Origin: an uncultured Acidobacteriota bacterium
GTDB taxonomy: Bacteria > Acidobacteriota > Thermoanaerobaculia > Gp7-AA8
Assembly: GCA_963822445.1 (NCBI GenBank)
Contig: CAWGHO010000002.1
Coordinates: 224,001-288,000 of the forward strand
Reading direction: 5' to 3'
Length of the DNA: 64,000 nucleotides
The position numbers and the translations under genes are program-made. Positions 39,272 to 47,950 of the stretch are shown piece after piece. The notes beneath the pieces were generated by a model. The model did no database searches. It was not told the DNA's origin and saw only the letters and a list, made by a program, of their open reading frames with translations. The number at the start of each line of letters is the position of its first letter. The stretch's first letter is position 1.

Positions 39272-42200
39272 TTACGGCTCGATCGACACGGTGCCTGTGG
39301 CCTGCATCGTCTGCGTGCCGCAGGACGTGGCCGCGTACGCGGTGATCGTCGCCGACGTCGCTCCTTCGGCCGGGGCCGTGTAGCGCAGGGTGTACGTGAA
39401 CCAGTCCGAGCTGACGTAGGAGATCTCACCGGCCGTCGCTTCCCAGTAAAGCGTCGAGTAGTTGGCGCTGTACGGATACTCGAGCGTGAAGTCGAAGCTC
39501 CCGCCCGGGGCGACGGTCGTCACGGGCAGCGTCATAACCGGCGCCGCGATCTGTCCTTCGATGCCGATGAAGAAGCCGGAGCCGTAGCCCTCGCAGCCTT
39601 CGGCGAGGCGAATCCGCGACTCCAGCACGAGCGAGCCCGGCTCCAGACCTTCGATCGTGACCGTGGTCGCGTCGGAAGCAACGATCCGGCCGGCCGTGCC
39701 GACGAGCGACCAGATCACCTGCGCCCCCGCGGGAACGTTGTACGCGGTGTATGTCTGCGTCGTGCCGGTGCAGAACGACGAGCTGCCGCCCACCTGCGTG
39801 TACGGAACGCTGTTCGTAGCCTCGACGTAGATGCTGCTGCTGATGCCCGGCGTGCCGGTCGCGTCATGGAAACTGGAGAGATAAATCCAGCCGCCCGTCG
39901 TGACGTTGTGCGTCACGCTGGCCTCGCTGGTGGTGAACGTCTCGCCGGTATCGCTCCACGTTCCCGTGAAAGGCGCGGTCCCGGTGAAGGTGGCGGTCAC
40001 TACCTGCCCGCACGCGCTCGGGCTCGCGGTGAACGTCGCGGTCGGGGGCGCCGGAAGGACCTGCATCGTGCGCGTCGCTTCGAACGCCACTCCGCAATTC
40101 GTGGTGCCGAAGATGCGCACCAGCGAGTCGCCAGTGCCGTGCGTGCTCGTGTAACTGATGACGTAGTAGCCCGGCCAGGGATTGCTCTCGATGGCCATGG
40201 CGTCGCCGAATGAGTTCTCGAACTGGAGCGTGGCCGTGTTCGGATCGACCCAGACGCCGAAGGTCGTGCTCTGTCCCTGATAGACGCCGTACAGATCGAA
40301 CCACGGCTGCTGCACGTATCCGCCGACATTGAGGGACTGCCACGCCGCCTTCGCGCTGCATGCGCCGGGGCCGACGAGCTGCACGCTCGCTGCGACGTAG
40401 AACTCTCCGGCCTGGATGACGATCGAGCTCGTTCCCTGACCCGAGACGATCGTGCCGCCCTGGACTTCCCAGTTCGCGGTCGCACCTTCCGGCAGGGGCG
40501 TGGTGAGGGTCGCGGTGACCGTGCTGTTCGGGCAGGCCGACGTCGTGTTGTACGCAAAGTCAGGCGCCGGCAGGGCAACGTAGTCGAAGGTCGCGGAGCC
40601 GGTCACGACGCCTGGGCCGTTCGCATCGCTGAACTGCGTGATCGTGTACGTGCCGGGGCCGTCCGGATAGAGGCTGATCCATGGATATTCGGCGTAGAAG
40701 GTCTGGCCGTTGCTCCAGGTGCCGGTGAACGGCGCGGTGCCGGTGAGGTTGGCGTAAACGTAAAAGTTTGTGCAGTCGGTGCCGTACTTGTCGACCGTCG
40801 CCGTCGCCTGCACCGGCGCACCCGCGTTGATGGTCAACGTCGTCGACGCGGTGTTCGTCAGGAAGCATTCGTTCTGCATGTTGACGCTGATCGTCGCGAC
40901 GCCGGCGCCATTCGTGGAGCGGTATTCGTACGCGTAGGTGTACTCGTCGACTTCACCGATCGGGAAGATGTTGTCGCCGAGGGAACTGGTGACGCTCCAG
41001 CCGGTGGCGTAATCGTTCAGTCGGGTGACCTTCACGACGGCCGTCCCGCCCGCATCGATCGTCGATGGCTCCACCGTCACCGAAGCCTCGGGCGTCCCCA
41101 GGGTCACGAAAAACGGGAAGGTGTACTGCGACGTGCAGCCAGCGGCGTTGGTGAAGGTTGAGGTGACGGTCGTGTTTCCGGGCTCATTGCCGTAGAACTC
41201 GAGAACCGGCGTGCCCTGACCGGAAACGATGGTGCCGTTCACGATCGACCAGGTGACCGTGACTCCATCCGGAACCGGAACGAGCAGGCGGGCGACACGA
41301 ACGAGCCCGGGGCACGTGCGCGTGCCGTAGTACCAGCCGTTCACGATGTCGTCGTACGCGTATGTCGGCTCAGGCAGACCGAGGGACGTGATCACGGCGC
41401 TGCCGGTGACCTCGCCGGGGCAGGAGTTGCTGTCGGTGAAGCTGGAGATGGTGTACGTGCCTGGCGTGTTGGCGACGCGCACGAGCTGGCTGTCCATCGT
41501 GTAGAACGGCTCGCCGTCGCTCCAGTAACCGAAGAACGGCGCGGTGCCGGTGAAGTCGGCTGTGATGGTGCCCGCATCGCACGAGCTGCCGCCGCTGACC
41601 ACTGCCTTGGGCGCGCAGTCCTGGACCAGGTAAGTCCAGGTCACGGTGCGCGTGCAGGTGCCGGTCGAGACATGCACCAGGACGCGGAAGAATCCGGTCG
41701 CAGGCGTCTTCACGCGCAGCCAGTCAGATCCGGTCGCGAGGATCTCCGCGTTTTCCGCCGTGAAGGTCGCGCTCTCGTGCGGCGCAAGACCCACGAGCGT
41801 GAGCAGCAGATCGAAGCCCGGCGGGAAGTACGGCGTGGCCGGATTGGTGAGGAGGTAGAGGGCGGAGATCTGGCACTGCTGAATGGCGACAGTCGCCGTC
41901 GACCGAACCTCGCACACCGCCGAGTTGCTGTCGCCGCGCGTGATGAATGCGCTGAGTCGCACGGAGCCCGACGCGCCGGCGGTGACCTGCACGGTCTCGC
42001 CTTCGGTCGACGACAGCGTTCCACCGAGAACCGACCAGCGGACCGTGTGGCCGGGGCGCAGATCGACGGAGGCGGTGAAGGTCTCGTTCGCGTTGACCGC
42101 AGGCTTGCTGACCGTGATCGGCGCCGGCTGCACGTTGCAGAGGTCGACGTCGTACGTCAGGTCGCGGCTGAACATGCCGCACTCGGTGGCGACGGTCAGG

Positions 42201-42466
42201 GTCATGTGCTTCCGCCCCGGCAGCTCGGGAACGTAGGTGAACGACCGCTGAGCGGGAGACAGCGTCACCGGCTGATCGAAGTCGTGGCCGGTGATCGTCT
42301 GCGACAGCACGGGTTCATCGAGGAACCAGCTGACCCGGAAGGGCGCGCCGGTGCGGCCATCCTGGAAGCCGATCCCGGAAATGGGATTGACGCAATCGGC
42401 TCCGAAGGCGGAAAGAGAACACAGCATCAGTACAGCAGCCGCTAAAACGGACAGGTGTCGGCGCAA
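39272..42466 (-). CDS. Large secreted Thr/Ser-rich Ig/PKD-like repeat protein
   Basis: Signal peptide; three A.[FL]TGTAPF.G.WS repeats; repeated W.(I/V).GTIVSGQGT. Confidence 0.78.
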   Translation of the reverse strand: MRRHLSVLAAAVLMLCSLSAFGADCVNPISGIGFQDGRTGAPFRVSWFLDEPVLSQTITGHDFDQPVTLSPAQRSFTYVPELPGRKHMTLTVATECGMFSRDLTYDVDLCNVQPAPITVSKPAVNANETFTASVDLRPGHTVRWSVLGGTLSSTEGETVQVTAGASGSVRLSAFITRGDSNSAVCEVRSTATVAIQQCQISALYLLTNPATPYFPPGFDLLLTLVGLAPHESATFTAENAEILATGSDWLRVKTPATGFFRVLVHVSTGTCTRTVTWTYLVQDCAPKAVVSGGSSCDAGTITADFTGTAPFFGYWSDGEPFYTMDSQLVRVANTPGTYTISSFTDSNSCPGEVTGSAVITSLGLPEPTYAYDDIVNGWYYGTRTCPGLVRVARLLVPVPDGVTVTWSIVNGTIVSGQGTPVLEFYGNEPGNTTVTSTFTNAAGCTSQYTFPFFVTLGTPEASVTVEPSTIDAGGTAVVKVTRLNDYATGWSVTSSLGDNIFPIGEVDEYTYAYEYRSTNGAGVATISVNMQNECFLTNTASTTLTINAGAPVQATATVDKYGTDCTNFYVYANLTGTAPFTGTWSNGQTFYAEYPWISLYPDGPGTYTITQFSDANGPGVVTGSATFDYVALPAPDFAYNTTSACPNSTVTATLTTPLPEGATANWEVQGGTIVSGQGTSSIVIQAGEFYVAASVQLVGPGACSAKAAWQSLNVGGYVQQPWFDLYGVYQGQSTTFGVWVDPNTATLQFENSFGDAMAIESNPWPGYYVISYTSTHGTGDSLVRIFGTTNCGVAFEATRTMQVLPAPPTATFTASPSACGQVVTATFTGTAPFTGTWSDTGETFTTSEASVTHNVTTGGWIYLSSFHDATGTPGISSSIYVEATNSVPYTQVGGSSSFCTGTTQTYTAYNVPAGAQVIWSLVGTAGRIVASDATTVTIEGLEPGSLVLESRIRLAEGCEGYGSGFFIGIEGQIAAPVMTLPVTTVAPGGSFDFTLEYPYSANYSTLYWEATAGEISYVSSDWFTYTLRYTAPAEGATSATITAYAATSCGTQTMQATGTVSIEP

Positions 42467-42575
42467 GAAAAGCTCCTCTAAGCAGGATGGATGGACTTCT
42501 GGACGGCGCGCATGGTCGCACGCCCCTGGGGCTGAAGGGAAGAGTTATTTGAGACTACGACCGCCCCATACGCCG

Positions 42576-42584
42576 TGTTACAAT
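42576..42584 (+). promoter_or_regulatory. Extended -10 promoter element for the thrS leader
   Basis: TGTTACAAT ends 9 nt before the leader ATG. Confidence 0.6.
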
Positions 42585-42593
42585 CCGCGCCCC

Positions 42594-42659
42594 ATGTCCC
42601 GGACGGCCACAACGACTACGCGAACGACGAGCAGCACCACGCTCGCGCCCTGTCGTTGA
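42594..42659 (+). CDS. Thr-rich leader peptide MSRTATTTTRTTSSTTLAPCR
   Basis: 9 of 21 codons are Thr (ACG x6, ACA, ACT, ACC); directly upstream of thrS. Confidence 0.82.
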   Translation: MSRTATTTTRTTSSTTLAPCR

Positions 42660-42687
42660 TCGTTGTTTCCCCTAATTCGAAATGATC

Positions 42688-42719
42688 AAGACAGGGCTCC
42701 GGCCCTGTCTTTTGTTTTT
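42688..42719 (+). terminator. Attenuator terminator upstream of thrS
   Basis: AAGACAGGGC-TCCG-GCCCTGTCTT followed by TTGTTTTT; the 5' arm can alternatively pair with 42647-42661. Confidence 0.85.
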
Positions 42720-42732
42720 CCGTGAGGTTTCC

Positions 42733-44649
42733 ATGAACGTACAACTACCAGACGGATCGCTGAAGGAAGTTCCAGAGAACGCCACCGTGGCCGACGTCGC
42801 CGCGGCGATCGGCAAGCGCCTGGCCAAAGACGCCGTGGCCGGAAAAATCGACGGCAAGGTCGTCGACGTCTACGCCCCTGTTCACGACGGCGCGAAGATC
42901 GAGATCATTACCGCGAAATCCGAGCAGGGCATCGACACCATCCGCCACTCGACCGCCCACCTGATGGCCATGGCCGTCCAGGAGCTCTTCCCCGGCACGC
43001 AGGTCACCATCGGGCCGGTCATCGAGAACGGCTTCTATTACGACTTCGGAACCGATCGCCCGTTCAGCGAGGAGGACCTCCGCCGCATCGAAGAAAAGAT
43101 GCAGGAGATCGTGAAACGCGACCTGCCGGTCCGCCGCGAGGAATGGAACCGCGACGAGGCCATCGCCACCTTCGAGAAGATGGGCGAGCACTACAAGGTC
43201 GAGATCATCAAAGGCATCCCCGGCGACGAGCCGCTGTCGGTCTATCGCCAGGGGGAATGGTTCGATCTCTGCCGCGGACCGCACGTCCCCTCCACCGGCC
43301 GCCTCGGCGCCTTCAAACTGACCTCGGTGGCCGGCGCGTACTGGCGCGGCGATCAGCGCAACGCCATGCTCCAGCGCATTTACGGCACGGCCTGGGGCGA
43401 CAAGGAACAGCTCGAGGCGCACCTCAAGCAGGTCGAGGAAGCGAAGGCTCGCGATCACCGGAAGCTCGGCAAGGAGCTGGACCTCTTCCACTTCCATCAC
43501 TTCGCGCCCGGCGCCGCGTTCTGGACCCCGAAAGGCACGACCGTCTACCAGCTGCTCTCGCAGTGGATGCGGGACCTGACCCTTTCCAGCGGCTACGTCG
43601 AGGTGAAGACCCCGCTGCTTTACAACAAGGGCCTCTGGGAGATCAGCGGCCACTGGGACAAGTACAAAGAAAACATGTTCCTGGTGGAGAACAGCGAGAC
43701 CAAGGAACACGACTTCTCGCTCAAGCCGATGAACTGCCCTTCGCATCATCTCTATTACGGGATGAAGCGTCACAGCTACCGCGAGCTGCCCCTGCGCCTG
43801 CACTCCCAGGACGTGCTCCATCGCAACGAGGCCTCGGGCACCCTCAGCGGTCTGACCCGGGTCCGGCAGTTCGCCCAGGACGACGGCCACATTTACTGCG
43901 CCGAAGAGGACGTGCCTGAGGAAGTACGCCGCTTCGTGGCCTTGCTCGACCACGTCTACAGCGCAGTCGGTCTCGAGTACACGGCGAAGTTCGCGACCCG
44001 GCCGCCGGTCCGCATCGGTGACGATGCGCTCTGGGACCGCGCCGAGTCTCTCCTCCGCAGCGCCCTGGACAGCCTCGGCCGTCCGTACGAGATCAAGGAA
44101 GGGGACGGCGCGTTCTACGGCCCGAAAATCGACTTCGACGTCTCCGACAGCATCGGCCGCAAATGGCAGCTGGGAACGATCCAGCTCGACTACAACGCGC
44201 CGGCCCGCTTCGAGATGCACTTCGTCGGCGAGGACAACGCCATGCACCGGCCGGTCGTGCTGCACCGGGCGATTTACGGCTCGTTCGAGCGCTTCATCGC
44301 CATCCTCATCGAGCACTTCGGCGGCGCTTTCCCGTTCTGGCTTGCACCGGTGCAGGTCGCCGTTCTGCCGCTTTCGGAGAAGTTCGTCGACTACGCGGAC
44401 ACCGTCGAGAAGCAGCTCCTCGATGCCGGTCTCCGCGTCGAGACCGATCGCTCGAGCGACAAGCTGGGAGCCAAGATCAGGAACGCCCAGCTCCAGAAGG
44501 TCCCCTTCATGCTGGTCCTGGGAGAGAAGGAAGCCTCGACCGGCACCGTCAACCTGCGCAAGCGGACGGGGGAACAGGCCTCGATGACGATGGAAGAATT
44601 GCTGAGCACCGCCCGCGGTTTGGTGTCCGAACGTGCGTTGACTTTATGA
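42733..44649 (+). CDS. thrS: Threonine--tRNA ligase
   Basis: TGS domain, RHSTAHLMA, DLCRGPH, RDHRKLG, KPMNCP, GAFYGPKID, GSFERF. Confidence 0.98.
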   Translation: MNVQLPDGSLKEVPENATVADVAAAIGKRLAKDAVAGKIDGKVVDVYAPVHDGAKIEIITAKSEQGIDTIRHSTAHLMAMAVQELFPGTQVTIGPVIENGFYYDFGTDRPFSEEDLRRIEEKMQEIVKRDLPVRREEWNRDEAIATFEKMGEHYKVEIIKGIPGDEPLSVYRQGEWFDLCRGPHVPSTGRLGAFKLTSVAGAYWRGDQRNAMLQRIYGTAWGDKEQLEAHLKQVEEAKARDHRKLGKELDLFHFHHFAPGAAFWTPKGTTVYQLLSQWMRDLTLSSGYVEVKTPLLYNKGLWEISGHWDKYKENMFLVENSETKEHDFSLKPMNCPSHHLYYGMKRHSYRELPLRLHSQDVLHRNEASGTLSGLTRVRQFAQDDGHIYCAEEDVPEEVRRFVALLDHVYSAVGLEYTAKFATRPPVRIGDDALWDRAESLLRSALDSLGRPYEIKEGDGAFYGPKIDFDVSDSIGRKWQLGTIQLDYNAPARFEMHFVGEDNAMHRPVVLHRAIYGSFERFIAILIEHFGGAFPFWLAPVQVAVLPLSEKFVDYADTVEKQLLDAGLRVETDRSSDKLGAKIRNAQLQKVPFMLVLGEKEASTGTVNLRKRTGEQASMTMEELLSTARGLVSERALTL

Positions 44650-44700
44650 CGCCTTTATCCGTAGATTTGCCCACTTCACACAACTCAGGAGGACATTCGT

Positions 44701-45255
44701 ATTTTTCCACCACGCGGTAAACCCAGATTCGCCCCCCGTCCCGCCGAGCCCGAAAACCGTATCAACGACATGATCCGTGTCGCCGAGGTTCGCCTCATCG
44801 ACTCGGAGGGGAAGCAGGTCGGCGTCGTGCCGATCCAGCAGGCCCAGGAGATGGCTCGGGAAAAGGACTTGGATCTCGTCGAGATCTCGCCGACCGCGAA
44901 CCCGCCGGTCTGCAAGATCATGGACTACGGAAAGTTCATGTTCCAGCAGAAGAAGAAGCAGAGCGAAGCGAAGAAGAAGCAGAAGATCATCGTCGTGAAA
45001 GAGGTGCAGTTCCGCCCTCGGATCGACGAGCACGACTTCGACTTCAAGAAAAACCACGTCATCCGATTCCTCGAGCATGGGGACAAGGTGAAATGCATCG
45101 TCCGGTTCCGCGGACGCGAGATGACCCACATGGAGCTCGGCAAGGCCGTCCTGGACCGCCTGCTGATCGAAGTGAAGGAGCACGGGTCGTCGGAAAGCCC
45201 GAACCCGGACCTGCAGGGCAACCGGATGTCCGTGGTCATTGCCCCGAATAAGTAG
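44701..45255 (+). CDS. infC: Translation initiation factor IF-3 (ATT start)
   Basis: AGGAGG 8 nt before the in-frame ATT 44701; RINDMIRVAEVRLID, PPVCKIMDYGK, RFRGRE. Confidence 0.95.
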   Translation: MFPPRGKPRFAPRPAEPENRINDMIRVAEVRLIDSEGKQVGVVPIQQAQEMAREKDLDLVEISPTANPPVCKIMDYGKFMFQQKKKQSEAKKKQKIIVVKEVQFRPRIDEHDFDFKKNHVIRFLEHGDKVKCIVRFRGREMTHMELGKAVLDRLLIEVKEHGSSESPNPDLQGNRMSVVIAPNK

Positions 45256-45359
45256 GCGGTAGGCAGTAGGCGGTAGGCGGGGGAACGGGCCAACAACAGA
45301 ATCGCCGGTTCCCCTGCCTACCGCCTACCGCGAGGGCGCAACGCGCCCGTACCGCCTAC
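45252..45359. repeat. Heptamer-arm inverted repeat element (GTAGGCG)n...(CGCCTAC)n between infC and rpmI
   Basis: Same arms and internal hairpin position as 4375-4462, in opposite orientation. Confidence 0.88.
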
Positions 45360-45412
45360 TGGAATCAAATGAAGCCGCAACCCGTTACCGCCCAAGCTTT
45401 AAGGGGAAATCT

Positions 45413-45610
45413 ATGCCGAAAATGAAGACCCATCGTGGTGCCGCGAAACGGTTCAAGAAGACCGGGACCGGCAAATTGCAGCGCAACCACGCCTTCCACT
45501 CGCACATCCTGACCAAGAAGTCGCCCGGCCGTAAAGCCAAGCTGGCCGGCGAGGTCGAGGTCAGCCCCGCGAATGCGAAGACCGTGAAGCGGATGCTGCC
45601 CTACAAGTAG
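45413..45610 (+). CDS. rpmI: 50S ribosomal protein L35
   Basis: [21 protein letters not shown]. Confidence 0.97.
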
Positions 45611-45693
45611 CCTGATCAGGCTACGCAACGGAGCGAGTCCGGGTAATCACCACTCCTGACCCGGCCGCTCGAAAGAAAGGAAACTGGGAGACC

Positions 45694-46068
45694 ATGCCGA
45701 GAGTCAAACGAGGTCCAAAAAGAAAGAACCGCCGCGCAAAGATCCTGAAGCTCGCCTCGGGCTTCTACGGGATGAAGTCGCGCGGACACCGCATCGCGAA
45801 GCAGGCCGTCGACAAGGCCCTGAACTCCGCGTTTGCCGGCCGCAAAGATCGCAAGGGTGATTTCCGCACGCTCTGGATCGCCCGCATCAACGCCGCCGCC
45901 CGCCTGAACGGAATGTCCTACTCCCAGTTCATGGCCGGGATGAAAGCCGCCGGAAACACGATGGACCGCAAGATCCTCGCGGACATCGCCGTGCGCGACG
46001 CTGCCGCCTTCACCGCGCTCGTCGAGAGCGCCAAGGCCGGCCTGGCCAAGTCGCAGAAGTCCGCGTAA
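45694..46068 (+). CDS. rplT: 50S ribosomal protein L20
   Basis: [30 protein letters not shown]. Confidence 0.97.
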
Positions 46069-46072
46069 CCAC

Positions 46073-46141
46073 GTGTAGTGTGGGCCTCCGGCCTACCTTT
46101 TGGTCCCCCGCCCGAAGGTAGGCCAGAGGCCCACACTACAC
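46073..46141. repeat. REP-like palindrome family A, copy 2
   Basis: GTGTAGTGTGGGCCTCCGGCCTACC...GGTAGGCCAGAGGCCCACACTACAC; contains the stop codon of the convergent gene. Confidence 0.9.
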
Positions 46142-47950
46142 GGGCGGACGTTCGACTCGCCCCGTTCGCGGATCCCACCAGACGATTTTCCCCTCGCGAT
46201 CGATCCCCGCCAGCCGCGGTGCGTCGTAGCGGATCAGGCGCGGGTCGGTTCCCCATCCCCAGTCGGCGCTCTTCACGAAGGGAACGGTCTGCACGATCTC
46301 GCCGCGATCGGCGTCGACGATGAACTGGATGCGATCGGCGCCGGTGTGGCTCCAGCCCATCTGCTTCGTGCCGCGCACGAGGATCCGTCCGTCCGGCAGC
46401 TCGCCGGCGATCGACGCGATTTCCACCGGCAGGACGACCTCGCGTCCGCCGTAAATGCGTAATCGCGACCGCTTCCCTTCGCGCACCGTCTCCACCACCC
46501 GCCCGTCGCTGAGCACGGCAGTGTTGATCGTCTCGCGCTTCGGGAAACCGATCGGTGAGGTCGCCGTGCGGCCGTCGATGAGACGGCGCTCGCGTCGCAG
46601 GAAGATGCGCGATCCGTCATTCGACGCGGTCAACAGCGCACTCACGGGAAGCATCGTCTCGCCGGTCTTCACGACCTTCTTCAGCGCCACGTCGATCTCG
46701 AAGATCCGCAGCGGTCCGCCCTCGTTCCGGTAGGTCAGCTCGATCACCCGGAGAACGTCCTTCGAGGTGAAGAACATCAGGTGCCGGAGCCTGCGATCGA
46801 ATCCGCCGGCCGAGGCCAGGATCTTTCTCGTGGAGACGTCGTAAACCGTGACGAGCGGGCCCTGACCGATGGCCACTCGCGATCCATCATCGGCCAGGCA
46901 CATCGCCGAAAACGCACTGACGCGGATGCCGGTCGCGCCGCGATTGGTGTGCAGCTCGGACTCCTTCATCCAGATCCCGACCGGCTCGAACCACGCCGCT
47001 GCCCGCCCGTCGCGGGAGAACTGCATCTCCGACCAGGGCACCATCCCGATGCGCTTCCAGCCGCCTTTCCCGTCGATCAGGAACGACGCGCGGTAGTCGC
47101 CCCGCGCTTTCGTGCTGCCGCTGGCGAGGAGCCACTCCGCACCGGGTGACTGCCGCAGCTGCGCGATCTTCGACAGATCGGCCGGCGTCGGGTGGACGAC
47201 CCAGATCACATATCCAGCGACAACCGCGACGACCGCGAAAATCGACGGCCAGAGGAATCGAGACAGCGCGGCGTGGCTGCGGCGGATGTCGGTGCGGCCG
47301 TTCGCGAGCTGCCAGATCGGCGCGACGGCAAGGATGAGCAGAATCGCGACGCCGATGCCGGCGCCGAGAAACACCGTCAGCTCCAGCGCCGCCCCCGTCA
47401 GCAGCGGACGCGCGAGCGCCACGAGCGACGCGACGAGAATCGTGGCCATCACGAAATCGACGGCGATCAAAACCGATCGCGAGCGGATGATGCTGGCCAG
47501 GATGTGGACGAGGAAGAACAACACGATCACCGCCCCCGCGGTCATCGCCACGATCTCCCGCGCCGTCAGAAGCCACAGCGCCGGCCAGGCCTTGCCGATG
47601 GCTAATGCCGAGGGAATGGCGATGATCGCGAAGCAGGCGAAGCTGGAGAGGATCGAGGCCGTGGCCTTGCCGATCCACAGCGACGCCGGCGAGATGGGAC
47701 GGGAGAAGTAGAACGACAGGCGTCGCTCGGCCATGTCCCGCATGACCGTCGATCCGCCGAATGCCGCCGCCGATCCGAGGGCCATGGCCATCGCCAGGAA
47801 GCCGCTCACCGCACCGATGACGTCCGTGCGATCGTTCCGCGCGCCGGGCAGCAGCGTCGCCAGGAAGGGCAGCACTGCCAGCGCCGCGCAGACAGCGAAG
47901 AGACGCGACCGCTCGCGCAACTCACGCAAGGCGATGGTCACCGCGGTCAT
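46136..47950 (-). CDS. ABC-2-type permease-like membrane protein with C-terminal beta-rich domain
   Basis: IALRELRE, RLSFYFSRPIS...LWIGK, several TM helices; coupled to the ABC ATPase gene. Confidence 0.75.
   Translation of the reverse strand: MTAVTIALRELRERSRLFAVCAALAVLPFLATLLPGARNDRTDVIGAVSGFLAMAMALGSAAAFGGSTVMRDMAERRLSFYFSRPISPASLWIGKATASILSSFACFAIIAIPSALAIGKAWPALWLLTAREIVAMTAGAVIVLFFLVHILASIIRSRSVLIAVDFVMATILVASLVALARPLLTGAALELTVFLGAGIGVAILLILAVAPIWQLANGRTDIRRSHAALSRFLWPSIFAVVAVVAGYVIWVVHPTPADLSKIAQLRQSPGAEWLLASGSTKARGDYRASFLIDGKGGWKRIGMVPWSEMQFSRDGRAAAWFEPVGIWMKESELHTNRGATGIRVSAFSAMCLADDGSRVAIGQGPLVTVYDVSTRKILASAGGFDRRLRHLMFFTSKDVLRVIELTYRNEGGPLRIFEIDVALKKVVKTGETMLPVSALLTASNDGSRIFLRRERRLIDGRTATSPIGFPKRETINTAVLSDGRVVETVREGKRSRLRIYGGREVVLPVEIASIAGELPDGRILVRGTKQMGWSHTGADRIQFIVDADRGEIVQTVPFVKSADWGWGTDPRLIRYDAPRLAGIDREGKIVWWDPRTGRVERPPV

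Follow-up and report, generated by a model that had tools for sequence, protein, structure and literature searches.

How is the threonyl-tRNA synthetase (ThrRS) gene thrS controlled in the uncultured Acidobacteriota? We examined this at the thrS locus of one such bacterium (Thermoanaerobaculia; Gp7-AA8; assembly GCA_963822445.1), within a 64,000-nucleotide (nt) stretch of contig CAWGHO010000002.1 (positions 224,001 to 288,000), the whole of which is called the window here. A 266-nt intergenic gap has thrS (plus strand) on one side and a divergent 1064-codon gene (39272-42466, minus strand) on the other. A preliminary description of the locus had proposed that a threonine (Thr)-rich leader peptide overlaps an antiterminator arm that competes with a terminator. 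All positions and counts in that description proved correct. This arrangement is supported by 87 copies from related genomes, 83 of them with at least five Thr in the leader and 76 with the expected complementarity, and it is far beyond chance because the whole layout recurs in relatives. We read the element as a ribosome-mediated leader-peptide transcription attenuator of thrS that would sense Thr-tRNA charging, and on the sequence evidence we give this reading a probability of roughly 0.85. What carries it is the set of parts and its conservation, the coding pattern seen in the leader, covariation in a hairpin (P1) and in the terminator, and the conserved complementarity and geometry of the antiterminator. 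The parts in the window are as follows.

42576-42584, + strand: extended -10 element TGTTACAAT (TGn and TACAAT), from the sequence; TGCTATACT is the consensus across the genus
42594-42659, + strand: leader open reading frame (ORF), 21 codons and TGA (42657-42659), MSRTATTTTRTTSSTTLAPCR; from the sequence and homologous ORFs in relatives
42603-42605, 42609-42620, 42624-42629 and 42636-42641, + strand: leader Thr codons, from the sequence
42625-42647, + strand: P1 hairpin, CG.CGAGC / GCTCGCG with an 8-nt loop; from the fold (-9.4 kcal/mol) and relatives
42647-42664, + strand: antiterminator 5' arm (segment 2), GCCCTGTC g TTGATCGTT; from the fold and complementarity in relatives
42681-42697, + strand: antiterminator 3' arm (segment 3), AATGATCAAGACAGGGC; from folds and relatives; 42688-42697 doubles as the terminator 5' arm
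42688-42719, + strand: intrinsic terminator, stem AAGACAGGGC / GCCCTGTCTT (42688-42711), loop TCCG, tail TTGTTTTT (42712-42719); from a consensus scan and the fold
42724-42727, + strand: Shine-Dalgarno (SD) sequence GAGG of thrS, 5 nt before the ATG and outside the hairpins; from the sequence, GAGG being conserved in the genus
42733-44649, + strand: thrS, encoding ThrRS of 638 aa, the regulated gene; from the ORF

The Thr-rich leader reading frame

The extended -10 element and the SD-less ORF were found in the window as first described, with Thr at 9 of 21 codons (ACG six times, and ACA, ACT and ACC) and all four ACN codons present. It had also been remarked that the leader is not called as an ORF of its own. 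There is indeed no separate entry, and the listing holds its frame within a longer GTG-started open frame (42291-42659). Counts for relatives given below come from 87 copies, drawn from the 111 strong ones with a single copy per genome and no unpublished genomes (alignment A4).

An ATG-to-stop leader ORF of 15-25 codons was present in all 87 copies, and the peptide consensus was MxRTTTTxQTRTT..PCR-stop. TRT-type motifs occurred in 79 of the 87 leaders and the C-terminus was Pro-Cys-Arg in 68. The conserved Thr-rich upstream ORF expected from the window was thus recovered in the upstream regions of relatives, where its Thr signal is confined to one frame: there are 608 ACN triplets in the leader frame, compared with 37 and 52 in the two alternative ones. 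At homologous positions the third base changes and Thr is retained. The Thr codons totaled 441 ACG, 102 ACC, 51 ACT and 14 ACA over the whole leader, and 167 ACG, 60 ACC, 27 ACT and 10 ACA at positions 4-8. The leader varies in length between two fixed anchors with its reading frame maintained, and the stretch between the two Thr clusters is free to vary in sequence while the frame is preserved. In about 80 of 87 copies the frame from the aligned ATG closes in a PCx tail immediately before the conserved stop (TGA in 73, TAG in 14, TAA in none). An untranslated RNA is unlikely here, since the ORF varies between 15 and 25 codons in length and its frame still ends at the PCx tail and the conserved stop.

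The leader ATG of the window comes 9 nt after the last base of the -10 box, and the leader mRNA would therefore be leaderless or nearly so. These 9 nt contain no GGAG/GAGG-type motif. A TAnnnT hexamer was located 6-15 nt (mode 9-10) 5' of the leader ATG in 71 of 87 copies, 45 of which carry the TG extension, and an SD-like motif precedes the ATG in five copies only, leaving 82 with an SD-less start. Judging from the position of the -10 box, the leader mRNA of most copies should be leaderless or have a 5' untranslated region of a few bases. In a minority of copies the leader is located behind tRNA genes.

Codon choice in the leader family differs from that in thrS of the window: ACG makes up 72% (441/608) of leader Thr codons, whereas thrS uses ACC 22 times, ACG 7 times and ACT once. 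The genome has two tRNA-Thr genes with CGU anticodons, one with UGU and one with GGU. The ACG bias may reflect sensing of one isoacceptor or the needs of RNA pairing.

Terminator, antiterminator and P1 hairpin

The consensus scan called the terminator with 10 pairs (6 of them G-C) and a loop of 4, and the hairpin folded at -16.7 kcal/mol. Its location at 42688-42719, the sharing of its 5' arm with the antiterminator and its end 13 nt before the thrS ATG (42733), a distance that includes the GAGG site, all agree with the preliminary description. A hairpin followed by a T-run was detected in 87 of 87 relatives. All ten pairs of the terminator changed on both sides, partly owing to a sub-family in which the stem is shifted (AGGGCCGA...TCGGCCCT) and CAGGG is still common with segment 3. 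A terminator belonging to an upstream gene was excluded, as the neighbor at 39272-42466 is on the other strand and divergent.

The pairing first described, GCCCTGTCGTTGATC (42647-42661) with GATCAAGACAGGGC (42684-42697), was found at these positions; its 14 pairs amount to -20.2 kcal/mol. The fold of 42647-42697 extends it to a longer antiterminator of 8 + 9 pairs at -24.2 kcal/mol, against -16.7 kcal/mol for the terminator, in line with the competition proposed earlier. The 5' arm spans the Pro-Cys-Arg codons, the TGA stop (42657-42659) and the 5 nt past it. Its partner is the terminator 5' arm together with the seven preceding bases, and a spacer of 22 nt lies between the leader TGA and the terminator region. 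The minimum free energy (MFE) fold of the full-length RNA keeps the terminator.

Complementarity of the terminator 5' arm to the surroundings of the leader stop is a family trait. When the arm was compared with positions -16 to +5 around the stop, at least six contiguous complementary bases were seen in 76 of 87 copies and at least seven in 62, against 3 of 87 in a control window 24 nt upstream and 3 of 87 in the spacer. The complementary run begins 10 or 9 nt before the leader stop in 75 of 87 copies. In MFE folds of transcripts cut before the terminator 3' arm, the arm pairs with positions -16 to +8 in 63 of 87. In the structure-independent alignment A6, 82.7% of cells can pair, compared with 24-52% after the partner has been shifted by 1-3 columns. 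RNAalifold on a MAFFT alignment recovered the terminator alone, the spacers being variable, and for this reason we used per-sequence folds and a second model.

The earlier view of a three-segment switch is sound in its core and incomplete, for it overlooked P1, a covarying hairpin between the codons of the Thr-Arg-Thr-Thr (TRTT) motif and the antiterminator arm. The regulatory Thr codons that come last (ACG ACG) fall within the P1 5' arm, and the 3' arm runs up to the first base of the antiterminator arm, which P1 adjoins without overlap. There are 53 different P1 stem sequences in 75 distinct regions. In 81 sequences (model R2) each of the five inner-helix pairs has varied at both partners, and one of these pairs is A-U in 35, G-C in 24 and C-G in 6. 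For P1 and the terminator together, 92.6% of cells are paired vs. 81.3% in shuffles, 16 of 18 pairs have both-side changes and none of 500 shuffles scored as high; the alignment was fitted to the model structure and the sequences are kin, and these shuffle counts are descriptive rather than probabilities. By analogy with the 1:2 structure of the trp leader, P1 is probably a pause hairpin coupling polymerase to ribosome, or else the apical part of such a 1:2 structure.

A classical 1:2 pairing of the (ACG)n run with segment 2 is possible. In the full-length MFE of the window the run pairs with GTCGTTG of segment 2, and in folds of nascent leaders 82 of 87 copies pair at least five bases of segment 2 upstream. 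This pairing does not exceed that of shuffled runs; in 15 of 87 copies, five or fewer of 100 shuffles were as good as the natural run.

The proposed switch and competing explanations

We infer the transcription start, translation of the ORF, the stalling and the regulatory outcome from the parts described above. Judging from the extended -10, transcription would start at the leader ATG or a few bases before it, and a ribosome would translate the 21-codon leader as RNA polymerase proceeds. When Thr-tRNA is plentiful, the ribosome would reach the TGA and mask the whole antiterminator 5' arm (42647-42664); a ribosome at a stop codon covers roughly 12-15 nt on each side. With this arm masked, segment 3 could pair only with segment 4, the terminator would form and transcription would end at 42712-42719. 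When Thr-tRNA is scarce, the ribosome would stall at the first Thr run (codons 4-9) or at the near-universal TRTT (codons 9-12). In the window the TRTT codons end 27 nt before the leader stop, and these Thr codons lie at least 27 nt before it. With the ribosome stalled, the antiterminator arm would be free to pair with segment 3 as soon as this is made, the terminator would be blocked and polymerase would read through into thrS, and probably also into infC-rpmI-rplT. In trp attenuation the decision is kinetic, and by analogy with the trp 1:2 structure P1 would synchronize polymerase and ribosome.

Two additions to this scheme were considered. The near-invariant Pro-Cys-Arg followed by UGA or UAG may be a programmed slow-termination site that holds the ribosome on the stop, a refinement we think doubtful. 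Slow termination would keep the arm masked while polymerase makes the ∼50 nt to the terminator, and the switch would then integrate release-factor activity or nascent-peptide effects besides Thr-tRNA charging. The third base of the Cys codon is T or C only; C, which occurs in 11 of 81 sequences, gives a C-A mismatch in the antiterminator and Cys is retained. This pattern is a hint in that direction, and transition bias could account for it as well. A bolder reading by analogy would have the terminated leader RNA of ∼125 nt also acting in trans, as reported for the trp leader RNA of Sinorhizobium (PMC6614838).

Several observations weigh against the attenuator as we propose it. Covariation of the antiterminator is near nil (0.085 vs. 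0.071 in shuffles; 7 double-change pairs vs. 5.3), and of the stems that were expected to covary the terminator does so, as does P1, and the antiterminator barely exceeds shuffles. The low value follows from the fact that GCCCTGTC and GACAGGGC hardly vary, which in turn is because one strand pairs with two partners, one of which also codes for Pro-Cys. Segments 2, 3 and 4 are nearly invariant, and the support for the antiterminator consists of conserved complementarity and position. By our criterion the expected pairing was missing from 24 of 87 MFE folds of truncated transcripts, and it is weak in a sub-group of three copies (L087, L088 and L090). The Thr run pairs with segment 2 no better than dinucleotide-shuffled runs do (median z -0.7). 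As P1 and the arm do not overlap, the untranslated state may give either read-through by default or super-attenuation with termination: without a ribosome, three-segment logic would lead to read-through, and sequestration of segment 2 by the Thr run to termination. For P1 and the terminator, the covariation carries the limit of its fitted alignment, as noted above. Single copies depart from the pattern as well. The leaders of L006 and L061 stop early. That of L108 is short, with one Thr by eye, where the ORF script chose a 19-codon frame with two Thr. At L018 (genome G001, a member of the genus) the -10 box (TGTTACACT) runs straight into the terminator, and the leader ORF, P1 and the antiterminator arm are gone. 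The promoter and terminator of L018 sit about 65-20 nt upstream of thrS in a genome of 790 contigs, and an assembly fault is possible; if the locus is real, thrS transcription from that promoter would terminate constitutively. Finally, the public sequencing runs gave only conserved thrS coding pieces from other organisms, which say nothing on leader expression: eight runs contained 5-7% of the words, and the four that were mapped showed 90-95% likeness and no cover of 42400-42773.

Some of these observations would fit a generic sensor of translation rate or termination built of the same parts, in which the terminator forms only with a ribosome on the leader stop, Thr codons are a partial signal and any slowing of translation, or failed initiation on a leaderless mRNA, gives read-through. 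P1 leaves the antiterminator arm uncovered, and because the pairing of the Thr run with this arm is not above shuffles, the antiterminator (-24.2 kcal/mol) should form by default when no ribosome is present; the SD-less start of 82 of 87 leaders points the same way. Such a sensor would need no Thr codons, however, and the gene regulated here is thrS. Thr is moreover a conserved feature of the peptide (at least five in 83 of 87 copies, TRT-type motifs in 79 of 87, third bases varying synonymously), and we consider the generic sensor unlikely. In a protein-dependent attenuator or operator, ThrRS or another RNA- or DNA-binding protein would recognize P1 or the repeated GCCCTGTC and the ORF would be incidental. 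GCCCTGTC is present twice (42647-42654 and 42702-42709) and nearly invariant across the order, a conservation beyond the bare need of base pairing, and E. coli ThrRS autoregulates by binding its mRNA, according to the passages available from PMC2965389. The invariance of GCCCTGTC, however, follows from one segment pairing with two others while coding for Pro-Cys. Neither P1 nor the terminator has a loop of constant length or sequence, and there is no conserved anticodon-like NGU loop. A protein operator also fails to account for Thr codons concentrated in one frame, for the preserved reading frame and for the constant position of the stop, and we hold it to be very improbable.

A further rival, a riboswitch of unknown class that senses tRNA or a ligand and is structured but not translated, its ACG repeats serving as structure, could draw on the pairing of (ACG)n with GTCGTTG of segment 2 in the full-length MFE and on the over-representation of ACG in the leader (441/608) relative to thrS (7/30). 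We regard it as scarcely credible given the behavior of the frame: third-base variation retains Thr, the ATG is kept in 87 of 87 copies, the PCx tail precedes the stop in about 80 of 87 and the frame is kept. The Rfam cmscan of 42000-46500 at E <= 10 likewise gave no relevant match; in 42576-42735 there was no match at all, neither a T-box nor a Thr leader, and the scan returned only chance miRNA-like matches to two other hairpins. A T-box riboswitch was ruled out by the lack of any T-box model match at this threshold. An operator of the E. coli thrS type appears unlikely, since there is no conserved anticodon-like loop and the thrS SD lies outside all hairpins. The leader-peptide attenuator remains the reading that we prefer.

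Distribution, neighboring features and known systems

The initial comparison of thrS upstream regions showed the same layout in the genus and, elsewhere in the order, in three genomes (L022-L024); it was not found upstream of thrS in six genomes from other families of the class (one of them the unpublished G030). A covariance model, R1, was built from 21 copies, one row being from the unpublished genome G002. At E <= 0.001 it had matches in 118 of the 127 genomes that represent the order (a tally that includes the unpublished G002, G130, G076 and G128) and, by our reading of the result table, 111 of 127 reached E <= 1e-7. Each of the 43 genera of the order has at least one match at E <= 0.001, and thrS lies immediately downstream in all 83 loci inspected (L031-L113). 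The genome of the window holds a single R1 copy, with no second one found, and the thrS product is its sole high-scoring ThrRS match.

Seven weaker R1 matches occurred in the order, in G080, G127, G126, G057, G125, G072 and G119; the matched places inspected in the first three were unrelated gene ends, and in G057 and G125 the thrS locus was inspected (below). The second-tier matches L114-L120 lie in coding sequence or where an unrelated gene ends at its terminator, and were not counted as copies. Among 114 genomes of other families of the class, R1 gave weak matches only. The seven of these inspected (L131-L137) were spurious, again gene 3' ends with terminators or coding sequence. Elsewhere in the phylum, none of 40 more genomes examined has a short ORF with at least four Thr in any six residues upstream of thrS. 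When 185,579 species genomes were scanned for the exact pattern, 56 matches came up, 53 of them titled Thermoanaerobaculia, Acidobacteriota or Acidobacteria and one with a Candidatus name only. The two non-acidobacterial matches (L165 and L189) lie inside ORFs with no thrS near and were rejected as chance. Within the reach of these searches, the element looks like an innovation of one order of Thermoanaerobaculia.

Nine genomes of the order have no R1 match, and thrS was inspected in three of these. Genus g24, with three genomes of the same family, has a shorter ThrRS that is 42% identical to that of the window and starts near residue 64, apparently without the N-terminal domain. In G057 and G058 (L234 and L235) no leader or terminator was found before thrS, which is preceded by a plain promoter-like site of the TTGATAT(C/G)AT type; in G056 only a C-terminal ThrRS fragment was matched. 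It seems that the attenuator was lost in g24 together with a replacement of the gene, and the element goes with the gene. The six remaining match-less genomes are 58-87% complete. In G051 and G125 thrS is cut by a contig end and its upstream region is unassembled.

Repeats are found close to the element in many relatives. Insertions of 80-150 nt consisting of short tandem or palindromic repeats lie between the terminator and thrS at eight loci (L062, L083, L085, L087, L088, L093, L096 and L099); GAATTTCGAA-type units are one example, and long inverted repeats (GTAGGTCGGACTCTC...GAGAGTCCGACCTAC) another. Tandem repeats of 5-8 nt occur just 5' of the leader promoter at L004, L005, L011, L013 and L015. 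These repeats look like small mobile or slippage-prone elements that favor this intergenic region.

A hairpin of another kind stands 66-83 nt before thrS in three genomes of another family of the phylum (L216, L222 and L224 in G278, G263 and G246). The shared sequence is AAGAGGTA(C/T)TCGTT(G/A)CCTCTT with TTTTTTTCT after it; L224 has G as its first base there, which gives AGGAGG, and the 9-nt loop of the hairpin contains CGT. This hairpin may be a different thrS regulator of that lineage, possibly one that mimics an anticodon.

Downstream of thrS the window continues with the following genes, taken from the ORF list.

ORF from 44770: infC
45413-45610: rpmI
45694-46068: rplT

A sigma-70-like site, TTGACT-18-TAGATT (44638-44667), overlaps the 3' end of thrS and may give infC a promoter of its own. 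The start codon of infC is often unusual, and the annotated ATG at 44770 may not be the real start. In the gap between infC and rpmI (45256-45333) there is a long imperfect hairpin of GGTAGGCGG-type repeats that drew chance miRNA-like Rfam matches on both strands and may serve in regulation or processing upstream of rpmI-rplT. A strong hairpin of ∼30 bp follows rplT (46068-46143; chance mir-like matches), with a terminator-like site at 46080-46096, and is probably the operon terminator.

A crude whole-genome scan for upstream ORFs dominated by a single amino acid, with a terminator and then a long ORF behind them, gave thrS as the sole convincing case; the scan was strict (for Thr, at least 6 T in 8) and may miss other attenuators. 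On the minus strand of contig C1 of G000 (∼165986-166016), a 10-codon GTG frame, VPATATTRTQ, with a 13-bp terminator-like hairpin stands directly upstream of a gene whose product, judged by eye, starts like a branched-chain amino-acid ABC permease. This frame is a weak candidate for a small leader.

Leader-peptide attenuators are classical in the trp, thr and his operons of E. coli, with pheST as the synthetase case. The thrS element resembles the E. coli leaders in its short ORF rich in cognate codons, its mutually exclusive antiterminator and terminator and the hairpin upstream of the antiterminator arm, and it resembles pheST in that the regulated gene encodes an aminoacyl-tRNA synthetase. 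It differs from them in that there is no SD and the ORF starts 9 nt after the -10, the stop lies inside the antiterminator 5' arm, P1 adjoins this arm without overlap, the host is an acidobacterium and there is no similarity at the level of sequence or model. Rfam includes the enterobacterial thr operon leader (RF00506). E. coli thrS is controlled by a translational operator and Firmicutes use T-boxes. These systems act on the same gene and respond to tRNA-Thr charging or the ThrRS level; their mechanisms differ from the one proposed here, and neither an anticodon-arm mimic beside the thrS SD nor a T-box is present.

For a synthetase gene the arrangement is less unusual than the preliminary description supposed. 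In the passages available from the following sources, pheST is named as a classical attenuated synthetase operon (PMC1262725), attenuators with a leader ORF and an antiterminator/terminator are predicted for Streptomyces trpS2 and leuS (PMC1262725), and a His leader is placed upstream of two hisS paralogs in bacilli (PMC2965389). These predictions came from comparative genomics and concern the same build before a synthetase gene or paralog, for other amino acids and in other phyla. According to the bacilli paper, hardly any of the attenuators predicted in Acidobacteria had a function (PMC2965389). The accessible text on Deinococcus deserti describes fourteen leaderless leader peptides of synthetase and biosynthesis genes, with cysS as an example (PMC4007540); they are leaderless likewise and belong to a different phylum. 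Closest in its target gene is 'thrL' of Streptomyces lividans TK24, a leaderless short ORF upstream of thrS that was read as a Thr-dependent leader peptide. As described in the passages available, it has 18 residues with two Thr and one hairpin with no U-rich tail, termination is called unclear and no comparative support is given (PMC8079986). The element described here has nine Thr, a canonical terminator and order-wide conservation, and there is no evident sequence relation between the two.

Our literature searches turned up no account of the element, nor of a thrS attenuator anywhere in Acidobacteria, nor of any attenuator in Thermoanaerobaculia. A comparative survey of 2010 outside the scope of these searches, by Lopatovskaya et al. 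(PMID 20198868), reportedly covers attenuation of amino-acid and synthetase operons and may list thrS cases in other phyla. The element is not in Rfam; its leaderless ORF, the stop in the antiterminator arm and the non-overlapping P1 are variations and make no new principle. Attenuation of synthetases by leader peptides, leaderless ones included, is already described, and the mechanism is expected and would be no surprise to a specialist; what is added is its occurrence in these little-studied soil bacteria. With 111 of the 127 genomes searched and a covarying hairpin, it makes a well-populated RNA family that can be curated. As a short, naturally occurring leaderless leader ORF with its stop placed within the antiterminator arm, it is also a convenient system in which to ask how RNA folding is gated by a ribosome that terminates. 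For the Thermoanaerobaculia, an acidobacterial group dominated by uncultured members, it gives thrS a concrete and testable regulatory mechanism, by which the cell would make more ThrRS when charged Thr-tRNA runs short.

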